From Acidobacteriota bacterium (GTDB lineage Bacteria; Acidobacteriota; Thermoanaerobaculia; Gp7-AA8): DNA of 64,000 nt. The stretch is taken from contig JAFATB010000019.1 of the NCBI GenBank assembly GCA_019244185.1, positions 1-64,000 on the forward strand. The letters run 5' to 3'. A program made the position numbers and the translations under genes. Of the stretch, positions 2,715-53,468 are shown in pieces (within the stretch, counting starts at the first letter, position 1; every line of letters starts with the position of its first letter). Under the pieces are notes generated by a model. That model saw only the letters and a program-made list of their open reading frames with translations. It ran no database searches and was not told the origin of the DNA.

Positions 2715-3948
2715 AGATATTCTCGACGATGTAGCGCGCGAACTCGCTCGTCTTCACCTTGGTCGCGCCTTCCATCTGGCGCTCGAGGTCGTAGGTCACG
2801 CGCTTCTGCTGGATCGTCTTTGCGACGCCGCGCTCGATGCCGTCGGCGGCTTCGAACCACTTCAGGTGGCGGAGGAGCATCACGCCGGAGAGGATCAGCG
2901 AGCCGGGGTTGATGACGTCCTGGTTCGCGTATTTTGGCGCCGTGCCGTGGGTGGCCTCGAAGATCGCGACCTCGTCGGATTCGTTCGAGCCGGGAGCCAT
3001 GCCGAGGCCGCCGACCTGGGCGGCGAGGGCATCGGAGAGATAGTCGCCGTTGAGGTTCGTCGTCGCGATCACCGAGTACTCGGACGGGCGGAGGAGAACC
3101 TGCTGGAACATCGAGTCGGCGATGCGGTCCTTGATCACGATCTTGCCCGCGGGCGCGGCGCCGCTGAGCTCCGACTCGGGGATCGTCACGTCGCCGAACT
3201 CCTCCTTCGCCAGTTGGTAGCCCCAGTCCTTGAAGGCGCCCTCGGTGAACTTCATGATGTTGCCCTTGTGCACCAGCGTCACGGAATCGCGCTTCGTCGC
3301 GATCGCATACTCGATCGCTTTGCGCACGAGGCGCTTCGAGCCGAATTCGGACACCGGCTTGATGCCGATCGCGGAGCCCTCGCGGATCTTGCCGGACGTG
3401 CGGCGCTCCATCGAGTTGAGGAACTCGATCACCTGATTGGCGAGGTCCGACTGCGCGGGCCATTCGATGCCCGCGTACACGTCTTCCGTGTTCTCGCGGA
3501 AGATCACCATGTCGACCTTCTGCGGCTCGCGCACGGGCGAAGGCACGCCGTCGAAGTAGCGCACCGGACGCACGCAGGCGTAAAGGTCAAGTACTTGACG
3601 AAGGGTGACGTTCAGCGAGCGGATGCCGCCGCCGACCGGCGTCGAGAGCGGTCCTTTGATCGACACGCGATAGTGCGCGAGCTGGTCGAGCGTCTCCTGC
3701 GGCAGGTACTCGCCGAACTGCGCGAACGCCTTGTCGCCGGCGAAGACCTCGTGCCAGTGGATCTTGCGCTTGCCGCCGTACACCTTCTCCACCGCGCCGT
3801 CGATGACATACCGCGTCGCGCGCCAGATGTCGGGGCCGGTGCCGTCGCCTTCGATGAAGGGAATCACCGGATCGTCGGGGACGACGAGGCGGTTGTTCTC
3901 GTAGCCGATGCGGGTGCCGGACGTGGGTTGCGCGATGCGGTTCGCCAT
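2713..3948 (-). CDS. icd: NADP-dependent isocitrate dehydrogenase (E. coli type)
   Basis: [85 protein letters not shown]; start taken at MANRIAQ. Confidence 0.97.
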
Positions 3949-45822: not shown

Positions 45823-47979
45823 TCAGGCGAGCAGCTGCTTGAGGTACGCGGCCACCTCGCGTCCGTTCTCGTCCCAGTAGTGCGTGTGCGCACCCGCGCC
45901 GCAGCAGAAGTCCGTGCAGCCGTCGACCGCATTCGGATTGCTGCGGATCCAAAGGCGCGCGTTCGCGTCGCCCGTCCACATGTTCCGCCCGACGTAGTCG
46001 CCGCTGCGATACGTGTTCGCCCATTCCTGCAGCGTGAGCGTGGTCGGATCGGGCGCGGTCAGCTGCGGGGCGGCGCCGTGGATCCAATCGTAGAGGTGCG
46101 GGAACGCCTGCGCGTAGATCTGCCGCAGCGGCGAGCCCATCGTGAAGAGACGCAGCGGAATGTGCTGCGGGTGCGTGTCGTCGTTGATCAGTCGCAGCTT
46201 CGCGTCAGGACGCGCGTTGAGATAGCGCAGCACGTCAGCCGAGATGACGGTGCCCTGGCTGTGCGCGACGATCACGATGCGGTCGTACGGCCGTCCGTCC
46301 GCGTCGCGCCATTCGCAGAGATGCCGCAGCAGCGAGACGTAGCGCTCCGCGATGCGCGCGCGCGGCGTGGCGTTGGCGGGACTCTGGCGCATGTAGTTGT
46401 CGATGTCGAGCACGACGTCGACCGCCGCGCGGAACGTGCCGATGAAGTACTTGCTGGTGAGGAGTAGCGCGATGATGGCGGCGGTGCCGCTGAGCAGCGT
46501 CAGACGCCATGGGTCGAGGAACTGCATCCCTCCGGTAATCGCAACCACCAGCACGAAGACCAAGGCGAACGTGAAGGATTCCGCCACGCGCACGATCCAG
46601 CGCATCCCGGCGGTGAGCCAGTCGCCGAGTTGTTCCGATTCCACATCGCCTGACGTGTGCGGGTGTCGCAACTCGGCGACGATCGATGGCCCTGTCGCCA
46701 CGAGCACGGTGACGATGAACAAAAACATCGCGAGCGTGTAGAACTCGAGTCCGCGCGCACTCTGCTTCAGCATGTCGCCGAGGTGGTCGGACACCGACAC
46801 GACCGGAGCAACGCGCCCGATCGACTGGACGAGCAGGTCCCAAATCGCCAGCGTGAACAGGACGAATACCGCCGCCGGCATGCCGAGGCTGAAGCGCGCG
46901 GTCCACGCAGCGGCACGCGCCTGGTCCCGCTGGTTTCGCGGGGTCATGCGAACGGCAACAACGCCCGCGATCGCGGCGAGCGTCGCCGTGAGGAAGAAAA
47001 GAGCCCAAGCGACACCGACAGCCGGGAAAAGAAGCCGTCCCGCATCCACCGTGGCGATATATACGTCGGCTTTGCTCGAAGCGTACGTGCCGATGAGGAA
47101 CACGATCGTCACGCCTGCCGCGACGAGCGCCGCGGCGACGCCGAACGCGACCGCGCCGTTCTTCATCTGCTGATAGCTGATCGCTACACCAATGCACGCA
47201 CCGGCGGCGATGACCGCCGCTTCGATCGCGAGCACGAGATAGGGGTTCCGGCCGTGCACGAGCAACCATGTGACGGTCGCCGCAACGATGACGATCGGCA
47301 ACCACCAGCGCCACAGCAGCGGCGCGGTCGCGCGCTTGCACATGACGAGCAGCGCGATGCCGGCGAGGATCACCGTCCCCGCCACGAGCGTCGCGGGCTT
47401 CTGATACGCCTCCGGCAGTTCCGCCGACGCGACGACGAGCACCAGCGAGAACAGCACGAGATTCAGCAGCGCCGCCGGCACGGTGAGCAGCCACACCGCG
47501 AAGGTCTGCAGCAGCACCGCGATCCTCCACGGCCGCCGGTTGTTCTGTGCGGACGACGCGGCCTGCAGCGAGTTCCGGCCGAGGCTCGGCAGGTGCAGGA
47601 TCAATTGATAGACCTCGGCGATCAACCGGTACCACGTCTCGCCCGCGCGCGAGAGATCGGCCCAGTACATCTCGTACACGTGCACTGGCGCCGTGTCGTC
47701 GATGCGCCGCCCTTCGAGACGCACCGTTTCGTAGACCGCGGCCGTATCCGCCCGCGGATAGTCTTTGAGTTGCTCGTACATGTACTGGAGGCCCGCGGGC
47801 GACTCGATCTCGTCGCCGGGCTCGAGCCGCGCCCGCGAGACGCGCAGCGACACTTCGCTGAACGAGCTGTACGCCTCGTCGTGACAGAGCAGATCGGCGA
47901 CGGCGCGCGCCGACTCGGCCGGCTTCTGGTCCGCGACTCCGTGAACTGCGACCACTGCGACAGCCTTCGGCTTCGGCAT
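45823..47979 (-). CDS. Alpha/beta hydrolase-like protein interrupted by a large multi-TM insertion
   Basis: VHGV near the N-terminus, EMYWADL, many TM helices, then VAHSQG, TMGSPL, DYVG, AHTHYW; GAGGTG RBS. Confidence 0.8.
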   Translation of the reverse strand: MPKPKAVAVVAVHGVADQKPAESARAVADLLCHDEAYSSFSEVSLRVSRARLEPGDEIESPAGLQYMYEQLKDYPRADTAAVYETVRLEGRRIDDTAPVHVYEMYWADLSRAGETWYRLIAEVYQLILHLPSLGRNSLQAASSAQNNRRPWRIAVLLQTFAVWLLTVPAALLNLVLFSLVLVVASAELPEAYQKPATLVAGTVILAGIALLVMCKRATAPLLWRWWLPIVIVAATVTWLLVHGRNPYLVLAIEAAVIAAGACIGVAISYQQMKNGAVAFGVAAALVAAGVTIVFLIGTYASSKADVYIATVDAGRLLFPAVGVAWALFFLTATLAAIAGVVAVRMTPRNQRDQARAAAWTARFSLGMPAAVFVLFTLAIWDLLVQSIGRVAPVVSVSDHLGDMLKQSARGLEFYTLAMFLFIVTVLVATGPSIVAELRHPHTSGDVESEQLGDWLTAGMRWIVRVAESFTFALVFVLVVAITGGMQFLDPWRLTLLSGTAAIIALLLTSKYFIGTFRAAVDVVLDIDNYMRQSPANATPRARIAERYVSLLRHLCEWRDADGRPYDRIVIVAHSQGTVISADVLRYLNARPDAKLRLINDDTHPQHIPLRLFTMGSPLRQIYAQAFPHLYDWIHGAAPQLTAPDPTTLTLQEWANTYRSGDYVGRNMWTGDANARLWIRSNPNAVDGCTDFCCGAGAHTHYWDENGREVAAYLKQLLA

Positions 47980-48104
47980 GGCGTTCACCTCGATTTTTGC
48001 GATGTCCTTGCGCTTGTAGGGAGGGACACAAGTGTACTTCTCCCCCGCTGCGGAAGGAGGGGCGGCGGTACAATGCGCCGATCTCATCCAATCCGGAGCA
48101 GCGA

Positions 48105-48701
48105 ATGGCGTTTTGCGCGTACTGTGGAACTCAGGTCGCCGCGGTGTCGTACGCCGCGTGTGCGACGTGCGGCAATTCGACGAACGGCGCGCCGCGGCCG
48201 CAGGTGCCGGCGGGCGGCTCGAACGTGGCCACGATCGCCATCATCGTGATCGTCATTGGCGTGTTCTTCGTCGCGATCGCCGGCATTCTCGCGGCGATCG
48301 CGGTGCCCAATTTCCTTACGGCGATGCAGCGAGCGAAGCAGAAGCGGACGATGGCCGACATGCGCGCGCTCGCGATCGCGGTGGAGGCATACGCGACGGA
48401 TCACAACGTGTATCCGCGCGCCGAGGACCTCACCTCGCTCCAGTCCGTGCTCACGCCGACGTACGTCAAAGCCATGCCGAAGACCGACGCCTGGGACCAT
48501 CCGCTGCGCTACCAATGCTGGCCCGAGCCGCAGTGCCAGACGTACTCGGTCGGCAGCGCCGGCAAAGACGGGCGATGGGAGCACGAGTCGCTGCAGGACT
48601 ACGACGCGAGGAGCGGCGGCGCGACCACGAAGTTCGACTGCGACATCGTCTTCACGAACGGCTCGTTCGTGCAGTATCCCGAAGGCGTGCAGGTGAAATA
48701 G
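48105..48701 (+). CDS. Zinc-ribbon plus GspG/pseudopilin-like protein without a prepilin cleavage site
   Basis: CAYC...CATC, TM, IAGILAAIAVPNF...KRTMADMRALAIAVEAYATDHNVYP...DAWDHPLRY...SAGKDG. Confidence 0.85.
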   Translation: MAFCAYCGTQVAAVSYAACATCGNSTNGAPRPQVPAGGSNVATIAIIVIVIGVFFVAIAGILAAIAVPNFLTAMQRAKQKRTMADMRALAIAVEAYATDHNVYPRAEDLTSLQSVLTPTYVKAMPKTDAWDHPLRYQCWPEPQCQTYSVGSAGKDGRWEHESLQDYDARSGGATTKFDCDIVFTNGSFVQYPEGVQVK

Positions 48702-48703
48702 CC

Positions 48704-49039
48704 ATGTACTGCACGAACTGCGGACATCAACGCGCCGACGCCGACCTCACGTGCACGCAATGCGGAGCGCGCGTGCGCACCTTCCCGCCGCCGCCCGTCA
48801 TCCCGAACTATCTCGTGCAGTCGATTCTGGTCACGCTCTGCTGCTGCCTGCCGGCCGGCATCGTGGCCATCGTCTTCAGCGCGCAGGTGAACTCGAAGCT
48901 CGCCGCAGGCGACGTCGCCGGAGCGAAGGCGGCCTCGCAGAACGCGAAGACCTGGGCCTGGGTGGCGTTCGGCGTCGGAGTCGCGATCGCGCTCGTCAAA
49001 GTCGTACTCGTCGCCATCGCGGCGATGCACAATGGTTGA
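48704..49039 (+). CDS. CD225/dispanin family protein with zinc ribbon (1)
   Basis: CTNC...CTQC; PNYLVQSILVTLCCCLPAGIVAIVFSAQV...GDVAGAKAASQNAK. Confidence 0.9.
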   Translation: MYCTNCGHQRADADLTCTQCGARVRTFPPPPVIPNYLVQSILVTLCCCLPAGIVAIVFSAQVNSKLAAGDVAGAKAASQNAKTWAWVAFGVGVAIALVKVVLVAIAAMHNG

Positions 49040-49055
49040 AGGAGAACAACGAGCC

Positions 49056-49502
49056 GTGAATTGTCCGAACTGCGGAACGACGAACCTCGACAACGCAACG
49101 CTCTGCATCAACTGCGGACGCCCGCTCACCACCGCGAGCGCAGCGCCTCCACAGCCGCCGGTGCAGTCGTACACGCCGCCCCCGCCACCGCCTCCCGGCG
49201 GCTCGCCGGGGATGGCGCCGCCGATGCCCGGCATGATGCCCGGCCCGGTGATTCCGAACTATCTCGTGCACTCGATCATCGCCACGCTCTGCTGCTGTCT
49301 GCCCCTCGGCATCGTCGCGATCATCTTCTCCGCGCAGGTGAATCAGAAGCTCGCCATCGGCGACGTGGCCGGCGCGCAAGAAGCGTCGAACAAGGCCAAG
49401 CTCTTCTGCTGGATCTCGTTCGGCATCGGCATCGTCGGCATCGCGCTGGCCTTCCTGATCAACGGAGCGGCGTTCCTTGCGGCGCTTCACAATCATATGT
49501 AG
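49056..49502 (+). CDS. CD225/dispanin family protein with zinc ribbon and Pro-rich linker (2)
   Basis: CPNC...CINC; SYTPPPPPPPGG; PNYLVHSIIATLCCCLPLGIVAIIFSAQV...GDVAGAQEASNKAK; AAGGAG RBS. Confidence 0.9.
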   Translation: MNCPNCGTTNLDNATLCINCGRPLTTASAAPPQPPVQSYTPPPPPPPGGSPGMAPPMPGMMPGPVIPNYLVHSIIATLCCCLPLGIVAIIFSAQVNQKLAIGDVAGAQEASNKAKLFCWISFGIGIVGIALAFLINGAAFLAALHNHM

Positions 49503-49842
49503 CAGCGCGATCGCGGCGGCGGGCGCGTGGGTGGTCTACACCTTCGCGCCCGCGGGCAACGCGTGGTTCCCGCAGTGCGTCTTTCATCAGCTGACGGGCC
49601 TCGACTGCCCCGGCTGCGGCTCGACGCGCGCGCTGCATGCGCTGCTGCACGGCGACGTCGCCGCGGCGTGGCGCTTCAATCCGATTCTGTTCGTGTTCGC
49701 GGCGGTCGCGCTGTGCGCCGTGCCGAGCCTCGCGCGCGGCGAGGAGCCGCGCTTCTACAAGACGCCGTGGTTCGGCTGGACGAGCGTCGTCGTGGTGACC
49801 GGCTACTGGATCGTGCGGAACACGCCGCTCTGGCCGTACTGA
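49477..49842 (+). CDS. DUF2752 domain membrane protein
   Basis: PQCVFHQLTGLDCPGCGSTRALHALLHGD...FNP...WIVRN; exact start uncertain. Confidence 0.9.
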   Translation: MRRFTIICSSAIAAAGAWVVYTFAPAGNAWFPQCVFHQLTGLDCPGCGSTRALHALLHGDVAAAWRFNPILFVFAAVALCAVPSLARGEEPRFYKTPWFGWTSVVVVTGYWIVRNTPLWPY

Positions 49843-49893
49843 CTCAGCGCTGAGCGGGTGCCGGACGCCGCATGGCATCCGGCACCACGCATC

Positions 49894-50238
49894 TCAGCGA
49901 TGGTCGTTGAAGAAAGTCCACTGGCCGACGGGGAAGCCGGCCTTCAGCTGCTGCGCCTGCAGGTAACCGTCGATCGCGCCGGCGATGGCGACCAGTCCCG
50001 CGCCCGCGCCGCACGTCGGGATGCCGATGGCGAAGCAGAGGATGATGGCCACGATGCCTTTCACCTTCTGCCCCATGATGATGTAGCCGACGCCGCCGAA
50101 GAGCAGCAGGTTGAGGATCAACACGATCACCGGATCCTTCGGCGGAGTGGTCGGATAAACGAGCTCACCGCCGGCTCCGCCCGTGGGCGGCGTGGCGGGC
50201 GGCGGCGTGTACGGCGGAGGAGGAGGAACGGAAGTCAT
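49894..50238 (-). CDS. Small Pro-rich membrane protein, TM2-like
   Basis: PPPPPYTPPP N-terminus; KDPVIVLILNLLLFGGVGYIIMGQKVKG...AIDGY. Confidence 0.75.
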   Translation of the reverse strand: MTSVPPPPPYTPPPATPPTGGAGGELVYPTTPPKDPVIVLILNLLLFGGVGYIIMGQKVKGIVAIILCFAIGIPTCGAGAGLVAIAGAIDGYLQAQQLKAGFPVGQWTFFNDHR

Positions 50239-50247
50239 CGCGTCTCC

Positions 50248-50682
50248 TTACATCTTCTCGGCGAAGTCGGTGATGACCGGGATGCGATAGCGCTGGCCGC
50301 CGACGGCCTTGACGATGCAGATGATGCTGATGACGAGGAAGGCGCACCAGACGATGCAGCTCAACGCACTAATGCCGCAACTGAGGACGCCGCGAAGAAC
50401 GATGCCGAGGATCAGCAATACGATCCACACGACGATTTCCGCGCCGAACAGCGCCACGCCGTTCTTGGCGTGCCACTGCACTTCGGGATCATCTTTCTTC
50501 GCGAAGAACGGCACCAGCGACAGGATGCCGAGGTACGAGAGCACGAGCCAGAGCGTGCGGTCGGAGCTGGCGCCCGGAGTCGGCGTGTAGCCGCCCGGTG
50601 GCGGCGGCGGAGGCGTGTACGACCCACCTCCCGGAGGCGGGGGCGTGGCGGGCGGGATCGTGGGCGGAGGAATCTCGCTCAT
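50248..50682 (-). CDS. DUF4870/Tic20-like membrane protein with Pro-rich N-terminus
   Basis: LSYLGILSLVP...DPEVQWHAKNG...IICIVKAVGGQRYRIPVI; AAGGAG RBS. Confidence 0.85.
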   Translation of the reverse strand: MSEIPPPTIPPATPPPPGGGSYTPPPPPPGGYTPTPGASSDRTLWLVLSYLGILSLVPFFAKKDDPEVQWHAKNGVALFGAEIVVWIVLLILGIVLRGVLSCGISALSCIVWCAFLVISIICIVKAVGGQRYRIPVITDFAEKM

Positions 50683-50724: not shown

Positions 50725-52377
50725 CTAATCACTTTCGCCGATGCGGGTGAGGCGGCGTTCGGCGGCGAGGATTGGTATCACCGCGAGCAGCGCCGACAGC
50801 GTGAGCGCGATCACGAGCGGCGCGAGAATCACGATGCCGTGCGCGCCGCTGTTCGACACGAGCGTGAAGACGTACTCCATCACCGGCCGCGCCATGAGCA
50901 GCATGATCGCCGCGACGTACGCGAGTGAGACCGCCATGTACGCGAAACCGCCGAGCGAGAGTCCGACCTGCAGCGGGTTCTCCGCGTTGAAGTTCGGCGC
51001 GAGCGCGCCGAGTCCGACGCCGAGACTCACCAGCGTCACCGCGAGCAGCGACGCGCCGAACAGCGTGAACGCCCACACGACCGGCGCGGCGTCGAGCATC
51101 ACGTTCGCCACCGCCGTCAGCAGCAGCGCGAGCAGCGTCAGCGGCGCGGCGTAGACGAGCACCTTCACGACGAGGAACTGCCGGAACGACACCGGCGCCG
51201 TCTGCAAAATCCAGAACGCTTTCCCTTCCGCCGACACCGACGGATACGCGAAGCGCAGACCGATCGCCGCGATGACGAAGCCGGCCATGCCGAGGTTCGC
51301 GTAGGCCACGAGCGTCGCGCGGACGTCGCCGCCGAGCGGCAGCATGCGGATGTTGTACAGATAAATAAAGAGCAGCGCGCCCATCAGAAAGAACTGCGAC
51401 CACTGCGCGACGTCGCGCCCGAGCGTGCGGATCTCCTTGCTCACCATCGCGCGCAGCGGCGGCTCGGCGTTCGCCACCAGCCGGTCGAGCACGCGCGTTG
51501 CCCACGCGGAGCCGAGCGCCACCGGCGCGAGACCTTCACGCGCGCGGACGAACGCGACAAAGTACGTCGCGCGCGCGACGATCGCGAACACCGCGAATGC
51601 GACGAGCGCCGTGATCGCGATGCGCGGCGCGAGCGGAAACGCGTTCGCGTTCGTCATCAGCGTCGCCAGCGACGTGCTCGGATAGAGGTTCATCGACGGC
51701 AGCTCGATCGCGCGCAGCACGCGCCCGACGTCGCCGGTCGAGATCTGCATGAAGAAGCGCTCGGGACGGCTCATGCGGAACGCGATCACGACGCCGGTCA
51801 GCACGAGCACCGCGATCGATGCCACGATCTGATGCACGCGGCGCACGGGAAACCAGCGGACCAGCAGCAGGATGAGCGTCGACGCGAACGACACCGGGAT
51901 CGACAGCAGCAGCGCGAGATTGACGAGCACGATCGCGTAGAACGACGGCGGCTTCGCGAACTGCCGCGCGAACGCGACGAAGAGCGGAATGAGAAAGAGG
52001 TAGACGATGGCCGCGCTCTGCGCGAGCGTCTTGAGCCAGCGCGCGAGCGCGATGCGCAGCTTGCCGCGCGGCGACGCGTGCTGGATGTCGAGATCGAGAT
52101 CCGTAAAGTACGCGCCGATGGCCGCCGTCATCGCCGACGAGAAGAGCACCACGGTCGCCACGAGAAAGACGAGGGCGAGGAGATTGCGCAGCAGTCCGAG
52201 GGCGAAGAAGGGCGTCTCGGCTTCGACTTGAGCGATCGCCCGGAAGAGGCGGCGAAACAGCACGAAGTCGCCGAAGAGGAACGACGCCATCACCGCGAGC
52301 ACGACGCCGGTGCGCGTCGCGTTCGCCGCATCGAACGGCCGCAGTCTGGCGAGCGCGAGGCGGAGCGGCCACATCAC
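50725..52377 (-). CDS. Putative ABC-2 type exporter permease, 12+ TM
   Basis: KEIRTLGRD...SQ, RFAYPSVSAEGKAFWILQTAPV; GTGA overlap with the ddl stop. Confidence 0.8.
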   Translation of the reverse strand: MMWPLRLALARLRPFDAANATRTGVVLAVMASFLFGDFVLFRRLFRAIAQVEAETPFFALGLLRNLLALVFLVATVVLFSSAMTAAIGAYFTDLDLDIQHASPRGKLRIALARWLKTLAQSAAIVYLFLIPLFVAFARQFAKPPSFYAIVLVNLALLLSIPVSFASTLILLLVRWFPVRRVHQIVASIAVLVLTGVVIAFRMSRPERFFMQISTGDVGRVLRAIELPSMNLYPSTSLATLMTNANAFPLAPRIAITALVAFAVFAIVARATYFVAFVRAREGLAPVALGSAWATRVLDRLVANAEPPLRAMVSKEIRTLGRDVAQWSQFFLMGALLFIYLYNIRMLPLGGDVRATLVAYANLGMAGFVIAAIGLRFAYPSVSAEGKAFWILQTAPVSFRQFLVVKVLVYAAPLTLLALLLTAVANVMLDAAPVVWAFTLFGASLLAVTLVSLGVGLGALAPNFNAENPLQVGLSLGGFAYMAVSLAYVAAIMLLMARPVMEYVFTLVSNSGAHGIVILAPLVIALTLSALLAVIPILAAERRLTRIGESD

Positions 52378-53468
52378 GCGATGGGGTTCACTTCGCCGAG
52401 CCACTCCATCGCGCGCACGCCGCGCGCCGCGCGCGCCTTCGAGCGCTCGATGCCGAGGACGATCAGCCGCTCGATCAGCCGCGGGTACTTGAGCTCCGTC
52501 GCCTCCCACAACTTCGGATACATGGAGATGTTCGTGAAGCCGGGAATCGTGTTGATCTCGTTCACGTACAGCCGGTTCGTGCCGCGCTCGAGGAAAAAGT
52601 CGACGCGCGCGAAGCCGGACGCGCCGACCGCCTTGAACGCGGTGATCGCGTGGCGCCGCAGCTCGTCCGACTTGTCCTTGGCGAGCTTCGCCGGAATCAC
52701 GAGCTGCGATTTGTCGTCGACGTACTTATCCGTGTAGTCGTAGAAGTCGCGCCCCGCGACGATCTCCCCCGGCACCGACGCTTCCGGATTCTCGTTGCCG
52801 AGCACCGAGACCTCGAGCTCGCGCGCGTCGACGCCGCGCTCGACGAGCACCTTCTCGTCGAACCGCAGCGCGTGCTCCATCGCCGCGTCGAGCATGCCGT
52901 CGTTCTTCACCTTCGTCACGCCGACGGACGAGCCGCTGTTCGCGGGCTTGACGAAGTACGGCAGCCGCAGCGCGTTCGTGACCGCGCGCGTGACGCGCTC
53001 GCGCTCGTGGCGCCACTCGCGCTCCTGCACCGCGACGTGATCGACCATCGGCAGCTTCGCCGCGGCGAACGCGTGGCGCATGTGCACCTTGTCCATGCCC
53101 ACCGCGGACGCGGTGACGCCGCTGCCGACGTATGGCAGACCAAGGATCTCGAGGTAGCCCTGCAGCGAGCCGTCTTCGCCGCCGGTGCCGTGGATCAGCG
53201 GAAAAACGACGTCGATGGCCTGGCCGCGCGACCACGTCTCGAACGAAAAGTCCTTGTCGCCGCTCGCGCTCTTGTCGTCGCCCGCGAGGATGCGCGCGCT
53301 GCGCTCGGGCGCGATGAAGCGTCCGTCGCGCGCGATGCAGACCGGCACGAGCTCGATGCGCTGCCGCGGCGCGGCCGCGGCCACCGAGCGCGCGGAGAGG
53401 ATCGACACCTCGTGCTCGGCGCTGCGGCCGCCGAACAGGAGGATGACGCGAAGAGGCGACGTGATCAT
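52374..53468 (-). CDS. ddl: D-alanine--D-alanine ligase
   Basis: FGGRSAEHEVS, HGTGGEDG, MDK, VKPANSGSSVG, FYDY, NEINTIPGFT. Confidence 0.97.
   Translation of the reverse strand: MITSPLRVILLFGGRSAEHEVSILSARSVAAAAPRQRIELVPVCIARDGRFIAPERSARILAGDDKSASGDKDFSFETWSRGQAIDVVFPLIHGTGGEDGSLQGYLEILGLPYVGSGVTASAVGMDKVHMRHAFAAAKLPMVDHVAVQEREWRHERERVTRAVTNALRLPYFVKPANSGSSVGVTKVKNDGMLDAAMEHALRFDEKVLVERGVDARELEVSVLGNENPEASVPGEIVAGRDFYDYTDKYVDDKSQLVIPAKLAKDKSDELRRHAITAFKAVGASGFARVDFFLERGTNRLYVNEINTIPGFTNISMYPKLWEATELKYPRLIERLIVLGIERSKARAARGVRAMEWLGEVNPIA

Follow-up and report, generated by a model that had tools for sequence, protein, structure and literature searches.

The 64,000-nucleotide (nt) window analysed here (positions 1 to 64,000, forward strand, of contig JAFATB010000019.1, Acidobacteriota bacterium assembly GCA_019244185.1, from soil) contained six small genes, g1 to g6, between positions 48105 and 50682. 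Two of them, g2 and g3, encode CD225/dispanin proteins, the family of the animal IFITM proteins, and g4 encodes a DUF2752 protein. Comparative analysis revealed a conserved core in the + strand operon, namely a CD225 gene with DUF2752 next in order, their stop and start codons often overlapping. In this lineage CD225 is duplicated and an unprocessable pilin-derived protein is added in front. A first-pass annotation, made from the sequence alone, had described all six genes as one module, and the six open reading frames (ORFs) that it had called were all present. The features of the locus were as follows:

48105-48701, + strand: g1, 198 amino acids (aa); N-terminal zinc ribbon joined by a linker to a single long hydrophobic helix, then a globular domain of the GspG/type IV pilin type.
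48704-49039, + strand: g2, 111 aa; zinc ribbon and CD225/dispanin domain, the DUF2752-distal copy, proline motif absent.
49032-49502, + strand: g3, 156 aa; zinc ribbon, proline-rich linker SYTPPPPPPP and CD225/dispanin domain, the DUF2752-proximal copy.
49477-49842, + strand: g4, 121 aa, TTG start; DUF2752, a three-helix membrane protein with a C-x9-CPxCG triad between helices 1 and 2.
49857-49886, no strand: inverted repeat read from the sequence, 9 bp perfect around a 12 nt loop, in the space between the stop codons of the convergent g4 and g5.
49894-50238, - strand: g5, 114 aa; proline-rich N-terminal tail with YTPPP and two hydrophobic helices, the last gene of the - strand operon.
50248-50682, - strand: g6, 144 aa; proline-rich N-terminal tail with SYTPPPPPP and a DUF4870 membrane domain.
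50725-52509, - strand: polytopic membrane protein of the ABC_tran_2 family, encoded upstream of g6 and g5 in their operon; its true start is probably later than 52509.

On the + strand, g1 and g2 were separated by 2 nt, g2 and g3 overlapped by 8 nt, and g3 and g4 by 26 nt; g6 and g5 were 9 nt apart. Searches against Pfam upheld the family labels of five of the six genes. CD225 (PF04505, cut-off 27.1 bits) was matched by g2 with an expectation value (E) of 7.3e-27 and 93.7 bits and by g3 with E 8.3e-27 and 93.6 bits, each together with Zn_Ribbon_1 (E 1.4e-6 and 9.5e-8, respectively). The g4 product matched DUF2752 (PF10825; E 5e-21, 75 bits, cut-off 27), g6 matched DUF4870 (PF09685; E 3.4e-9, 37.1 bits, cut-off 25), and residues 70-160 of g1 matched T2SSG (PF08334; E 1.7e-8, 34.9 bits, cut-off 21). 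The ABC_tran_2 gene matched PF16949 at E 2.4e-76. The sixth label, which had called g5 TM2-like, was not borne out: g5 matched no Pfam family at E up to 0.1, TM2 (PF05154) was matched by only 2 of its 22 relatives (best E 0.031) and DUF4190 by one, and the protein atlas gave a weak lead, with a score of 0.90, to a cluster with TM2 in 27% of its members.

The sequence motifs that had been pointed out were all found in the translations, namely zinc ribbons of the form CxxC-x11-CxxC in g1 and CxxC-x10-CxxC in g2 and g3, TLCCCLP in both g2 and g3, forming a tri-Cys within the first hydrophobic segment, and C-x9-CPGC in g4. The description of the products as small inner-membrane proteins of uncharacterised families was also supported. 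Profile searches of the whole genome found CD225 only in g2 and g3, and DUF2752 only in g4.

Conservation was analysed in 100 loci chosen by DUF2752, 20 of them taken from 41 related genomes and the other 80 from contigs of a set with one genome per species. Six or more of the named loci among the 100 duplicate loci of the 41-genome set. CD225 was present in 78 of the 100. Among the 80 species-contig loci, which are the best 80 of at least 592 DUF2752 matches, CD225 lay upstream of DUF2752 on the same strand within 150 nt in 54 and within 1.5 kb in 60. The two distances gave the same counts for the Thermoanaerobaculia-like loci (14/14), the Bacteroidota (37/42) and the remaining groups (0/4), while the other Acidobacteriota rose from 2/8 within 150 nt to 7/8 within 1.5 kb, and the Verrucomicrobiota/Kiritimatiellota from 1/12 to 2/12. 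In the reciprocal test, 35 of the 36 above-cut-off CD225 matches in the 41 genomes were located about 0.9 kb or less from DUF2752 on the same contig, and the remaining match sits at a contig end. The earlier proposal that CD225 and DUF2752 are functionally tied was supported by this same-strand pairing in Acidobacteriota and Bacteroidota, rarer in Verrucomicrobiota/Kiritimatiellota.

In a sample of the phylum, DUF2752 was detected in 183 of 301 genomes. The tallies of the 41-genome, phylum and Yip1 samples (the last described below) include the unpublished genomes G002, G024, G087 and G030. Locus L020, taken from G002, contributes a row to alignments A5 and A6, is included in the tree and enters the locus, cysteine, conservation and proline-motif counts, while L146, from G030, gave no match; no claim depends on these four genomes alone. 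Clustering of the neighbours of 71 loci revealed no conserved third gene, only lineage-specific synteny, with the exception of zinc-ribbon/GYF membrane genes. In the library of papers searched, no mention of DUF2752, alone or with CD225, was found, and nothing relevant was found on GYF_2, TM2, DUF4190, RDD, DUF4870 and DUF4339 in combination.

The locus is composed of two convergent operons and is not one six-gene operon. The ABC_tran_2 gene ends 42 nt upstream of g6, so the supposed - strand pair closes a longer operon with the order ABC_tran_2, g6, g5. Of the 27 loci holding g6/g5, 25 had the ABC_tran_2 gene in synteny with them, as did L121-L123. Across related loci, g5, g6 and ABC_tran_2 stayed together, whereas the spacing between DUF2752 and g5 was anywhere between 0 and 1855 nt. 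Both CD225 and DUF2752 were missing from 4 of the 24 genomes sampled within the genus, the same four for both families. The ABC_tran_2, g6, g5 trio was intact in three of these four, the fourth genome being 71% complete; g5 and g6 are therefore independent of the CD225 unit. The first-pass view of one six-gene unit was thus not sustained, and its co-occurrence prediction held in part: CD225 and DUF2752 recur as a pair, while the pilin-like gene, g5 and g6 neighboured DUF2752 in none of the examined loci other than the Thermoanaerobaculia-like ones.

The inverted repeat at 49857-49886 likely acts as a two-way transcription stop and lacks a T tract. The scan for consensus terminators did not pick it up. 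The promoter and terminator scan returned no promoter and two weak intragenic terminator-like sites, with no excess over shuffled sequences.

A proline motif links the two operons. In a six-frame search of the 5,304,552 bases of the genome (ORFs of at least 60 aa), YTPPP occurred three times, in g3, g5 and g6 only; the same search returned 62 runs of six prolines. The form Y-x-PPP was kept in 18 of 26 proximal CD225 proteins, 13 of 22 g5 relatives and 20 of 23 g6 relatives, and was absent from distal CD225 copies (0/17), pilin-like proteins (0/23) and DUF2752 (0/28). This motif speaks for the first-pass proposal that the six genes are a single module whose products work together in one inner-membrane complex or pathway. 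It is joined by the synteny of all six genes in most Thermoanaerobaculia-like loci, by two loci from other families of the class (L116 and L117) in which a DUF4870 gene immediately precedes DUF2752, and by TM2 genes within or beside the pair in other phyla. The proposal is, however, rather unlikely in view of the persistence of the trio without CD225/DUF2752, the variable spacing between DUF2752 and g5, the restriction of g1, g5 and g6 to one type of locus, and the stem-loop between the two units.

The proline tails would be docking motifs for a common cytoplasmic partner, a reading that keeps a looser, though still rather unlikely, form of the one-complex idea in play. Three GYF_2 proteins are encoded in the genome, one of them fused to SPFH/Band_7_1, and this SPFH-GYF_2 protein is a candidate reader of the YTPPP tails. 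Its gene (L163:565-1698; contig C17:17558-18691, + strand) encodes an SPFH/Band_7_1 domain (E 9e-94) and a C-terminal GYF_2 domain (E 5e-13) flanked by proline runs. Passages of PMC11135422 describe micromolar binding of a proline-rich sequence by a bacterial GYF domain, and N-terminal zinc ribbons that bind protein partners. The ribbon proteins of the window resemble GltJ of Myxococcus xanthus and ZitP of Caulobacter in being membrane proteins with N-terminal cytoplasmic zinc ribbons. GltJ and ZitP also have GYF modules, and GYF_2 domains are found on CD225, DUF4190 and TM2 partners of DUF2752 in other lineages. The window proteins differ in having a ribbon or a proline motif without a GYF domain; moreover, the membrane modules of GltJ are unrelated to those of the window proteins, and no gliding or polarity genes are involved here.

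Conservation within DUF2752 was examined in 116 distinct sequences, collapsed from 126, which were also used for a quick tree. C34, C44, C47 and G48 were invariant in all 116, followed by G41 (115), N68 (114), P45 (113), R51 (109), H58 (99) and R114 (99). The AlphaFold2 model of g4, built from 58 sequences, had a mean predicted local distance difference test score (pLDDT) of 93 and consisted of three long helices, with a short-helix region between helices 1 and 2. The density of lysine plus arginine was 0.25 in the N-tail and the helix 2-3 loop and 0.067 in the cysteine loop. The cysteine loop would therefore lie outside the cytoplasm, which probably places the cysteine triad, N68 and R114-N115 on the periplasmic face. 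The DUF2752 profile had a non-significant local likeness (E 0.74) to the zinc site of queuine tRNA-ribosyltransferase among solved structures. C-P-x-C-G is a classic metal-binding knuckle.

In loci without CD225, other genes occupied its place. Partners were defined as same-strand neighbours of DUF2752, typed by Pfam and upstream unless stated. Yip1 proteins were found in seven loci, one with a zinc ribbon; DUF4870 in two, one of them also with YidD downstream; a zinc ribbon-TM2 protein in one; GYF_2-DUF4190 proteins in three, two of which had copies flanking DUF2752 on both sides; GYF_2 with an unassigned membrane part in four; and a GYF_2-TM2 protein in one, downstream of DUF2752. Three Pyrinomonadaceae-type loci had the order CD225, zinc ribbon-TM2, DUF2752, with the middle gene typed by eye from the Pfam-typed L035 protein. 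The earlier grouping of DUF4870 and TM2 in one set was accordingly found among the DUF2752 partners of other lineages and not in the operon of the window. The partners are small polytopic membrane proteins with a cytoplasmic N-terminal zinc ribbon, GYF_2 domain or proline-rich tail.

Partner type followed the DUF2752 tree. Partner labels required 20 changes against a shuffled mean of 41.5, none of 200 shuffles being as low, and the Yip1-linked clade was supported by a Shimodaira-Hasegawa-like approximate likelihood ratio test (SH-aLRT) value of 97. This pattern is clustering, in which relatives share labels, and does not count independent events.

In most partners, cysteines lie within a membrane helix. 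CC or CCC was present in 100 of 103 CD225 ORFs, the exceptions being one gene fragment and two distal second copies, and most of the DUF4190 partners inspected had CCC or CC. Five of the six aligned Yip1 partners had CC-x-C in the last helix. A class-wide sample of 30 Yip1 loci comprised 9 adjacent to DUF2752, 16 non-adjacent and 5 that the profile did not detect. All nine DUF2752-adjacent Yip1 proteins had CC in the last helix and 4-11 cysteines each, vs none of the 16 non-adjacent proteins, with 0-3 cysteines each.

Other genes were also observed next to DUF2752. In L116, a YidD membrane-insertion-efficiency-factor gene (L116:1320-1661, E 2e-20) directly followed DUF2752, which DUF4870 preceded. 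OPT oligopeptide transporter genes (E 1e-82 to 1e-87) adjoined DUF2752 in L106, L109 and L110, from other Thermoanaerobaculia families, and an RDD-like membrane gene, identified by eye only, was syntenic near it in L053 (3941-4684) and five related Sphingobacteriia loci.

The pilin-like protein g1 scored 44.7 bits against TIGR01710 (GspG), below the cut-off of 88.85. Its closest relatives in its own genome were two tandem classical pseudopilin paralogues (L129:944-2127; contig C26, - strand) with a G-F-T-L-I-E prepilin start, at 58% identity, measured over the pilin domain, and 46% identity. In alignment A6, none of the 19 zinc-ribbon rows (g1 with 18 orthologues) kept G-F-T-L-I-E; in its place stood the zinc ribbon, the linker and plain hydrophobic residues, and the glutamate at +5 was lost. 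Since the prepilin start is replaced, g1 would be neither cleaved by prepilin peptidase nor built into a fibre in the usual way. The suggestion of an uncleavable pseudopilin was hence confirmed, G at -1, F/M at +1 and E at +5 being absent in g1 and the 18 orthologues. Compared with GspG/PulG and type IV pilins, g1 is alike in the C-terminal half of the pilin helix and in the globular domain, and differs in its missing prepilin leader and its sub-cut-off TIGR01710 score. In a locus from Verrucomicrobiae, the gene directly after DUF2752 (L062:6439-7329) combined GYF_2 and DUF4190 by Pfam with a C-terminal part matching the g1-derived profile; this protein may be an independent parallel to g1.

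Gene order, its conservation, the invariant residues and the genome-unique motif were observed directly, and from them we infer a complex with a particular topology, cysteine chemistry and role. DUF2752 would be an obligate membrane partner of small proteins with cysteines inside a membrane helix. Its triad, probably periplasmic, would most likely form a metal-binding or thiol-reactive site through which the partner is bound, stabilised or modified. On the cytoplasmic side, the zinc ribbons and proline-rich tails may serve as docking modules that tie the + operon proteins, g5 and g6 to common cytoplasmic partners, possibly GYF_2-domain proteins. The role would most likely be inner-membrane organisation or sensing, and not phage defence. 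As a whole, the reading of DUF2752 as the obligate partner of membrane-cysteine proteins, with an inner-membrane role, was given about an even chance of being right.

Several results weigh against this reading. The 80 species-contig loci, as best matches, are biased to the CD225-linked subfamily. Outside the genus, DUF2752 was present in 13 of 16 genomes and CD225 in none, and 20 of the 116 tree sequences, one of them truncated at a contig end, had no recognisable small-membrane neighbour. No CD225-DUF2752 fusion was found among 12 longer relatives of DUF2752 and 19 of CD225. The cysteine enrichment of Yip1 is confined to one subfamily and is hence one evolutionary event, and the DUF4870 and TM2 partners have single conserved cysteines and no CC. 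The periplasmic placement of the triad has the positive-inside rule as its single basis, and the partner cysteines may lie in the cytoplasmic leaflet, away from a periplasmic site. Comparison of the DUF2752 model with solved structures returned no usable match (Foldseek against the PDB, best E 5.8; VIA wide search, best Z 2.9), and therefore no chemistry can be read from the structure.

A more specific alternative makes DUF2752 an enzyme whose substrates are its partner's membrane cysteines, working either as a protein S-acyltransferase that depends on lipid or as a small thiol-disulfide oxidoreductase of the membrane. That the three cysteines, R51, N68 and R114-N115 are conserved family-wide points to an active site more than to a scaffold, and CC occurs inside a helix in at least three unrelated partner families (CD225, DUF4190 and the Yip1 subfamily). 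The equivalent cysteines of IFITM3 are S-palmitoylated according to passages of PMC4488726. These points are set against a C-P-x-C-G motif typical of metal knuckles and against a sole profile likeness, the non-significant one, that is to a zinc site. The DHHC motif is absent from g4, and neither Foldseek nor VIA matched the fold to DsbB, VKOR or acyltransferases, an outcome with which a new fold of similar chemistry would be compatible; a periplasmic site may also miss cysteines in the cytoplasmic leaflet. An enzyme of this kind was considered unlikely. A broader version, in which DUF2752 would be a dedicated catalytic or metal-bridging partner for the invariant membrane cysteines of bacterial IFITM-like proteins and for those of DUF4190 and Yip1-subfamily proteins, possibly a lipid-dependent S-acyltransferase facing the periplasm, was judged improbable to a similar degree. 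If true, it would be the first bacterial system modifying cysteines inside integral membrane helices and a pointer to the ancestral biochemistry of the IFITM/PRRT family.

The possibility raised at first, that the genes block phage entry or belong to a defence island, was not supported by most of the data. An anti-phage or entry-blocking system like the animal IFITMs would agree with the homology to IFITM, with the TIR domains on two of the 19 longer CD225 relatives and the protein kinase on one (the three being the metagenomic proteins P0144, P0149 and P0136), and with an Argonaute/SIR2-like neighbour in 1 of 30 sampled loci. However, none of eight window proteins matched PADLOC-DB 2.0 (E up to 0.01). 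In the neighbour scan of the 30 loci, from which two very long proteins were left out, 12 of 144 proteins matched any PADLOC model; these were mostly generic enzymes (e.g., cysteine desulfurase, dGTPase), and none recurred next to the pair. Judged by eye, the flanking ORFs look housekeeping (cysteine-desulfurase-, Fe-S (iron-sulfur)-assembly- and D-Ala-D-Ala-ligase-like). The genome has one copy of the pair, the presence of which tracks the phylogeny of the genus. The families were nearly absent from phage records, with matches in only 2 of 50,697, both short unannotated faecal contigs. A defence function is thus very unlikely, and a phage origin was rejected on the same two records. Among the papers searched, the only treatment of bacterial IFITM homologues found in an anti-phage context was a discussion remark in the SNIPE preprint.

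One phage record, MT839860.1, is a 7.5 kb unannotated faecal contig labelled 'Bacteriophage sp.', in which CD225 and DUF2752 matches are adjacent on one strand (about 3064-3807). It may be a mis-assigned bacterial fragment. Separately, the TIR and kinase fusions suggest that CD225 can serve as a membrane module of signalling or immune-type proteins.

Least probable of all was that the pair handles a thiophilic metal, passed in a Mer-like manner from a periplasmic CxxC-type site to the partner helix cysteines and on to the cytoplasmic zinc ribbon: the outward-facing triad, the CC-x-x-P inside the partner helix, whose cysteines we take to resemble the vicinal cysteines of MerT/MerF, and four more cysteines in the ribbon would suit such a path, but none of the six proteins matched a Mer, metal-ATPase or metal-regulator family, GYF_2 or proline tails replace the ribbons in many partners, and no metal-resistance genes were noticed in the flanks.

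The reading of DUF2752 as the obligate partner of membrane-cysteine proteins also bears on the animal relatives of CD225. The CD225 profile matched the solved structure of PRRT1 (9zks_M) at E 6.7e-20; PRRT1/SynDIG4 is an AMPA-receptor auxiliary subunit. The g2 and g3 products are like IFITM1-3, PRRT1 and PRRT2 in having CD225 above threshold, a di-cysteine in the first hydrophobic segment and a conserved loop. They differ from the animal proteins in having an N-terminal zinc ribbon in place of the animal N-terminal region, cysteines that form a tri-Cys, and a DUF2752 partner encoded with them that is not known in animals. Bacterial CD225/dispanin members were catalogued in 2012, as parts of PMC3282796 indicate. 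Passages of PMC4488726 report that two mycobacterial members restricted influenza in human cells and that mycobacterial IFITMs were palmitoylated when expressed in human cells, the sole setting in which these members were studied; the words operon, neighbor and adjacent are absent from these passages.

The CD225 family includes the IFITM antiviral factors and the synaptic regulators PRRT1/PRRT2, the mode of action is debated, and bacteria hold its presumed ancestors. In several phyla, the genes for these presumed ancestors come with that of one specific partner, marked by its invariant cysteine triad. This partner gives a testable handle on the purpose of the conserved cysteines of the family, and both small genes are present in Bacteroidota that can be cultured, with Dysgonomonas gadei, Sphingobacterium and Mucilaginibacter represented among the 80 species-contig loci. 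Zinc ribbons, together with GYF domains and the genome-unique proline motif, may in addition wire many small membrane proteins together.

Upstream of the + operon, the gene at 45823-48087 of the window (- strand) is divergent from g1. It was rejected as a member of the unit, with no relatives in the 100 related loci. It encodes a 754-aa protein with many hydrophobic helices and, near the C-terminus, a weak match to the DUF676 serine-esterase family (E 0.045).

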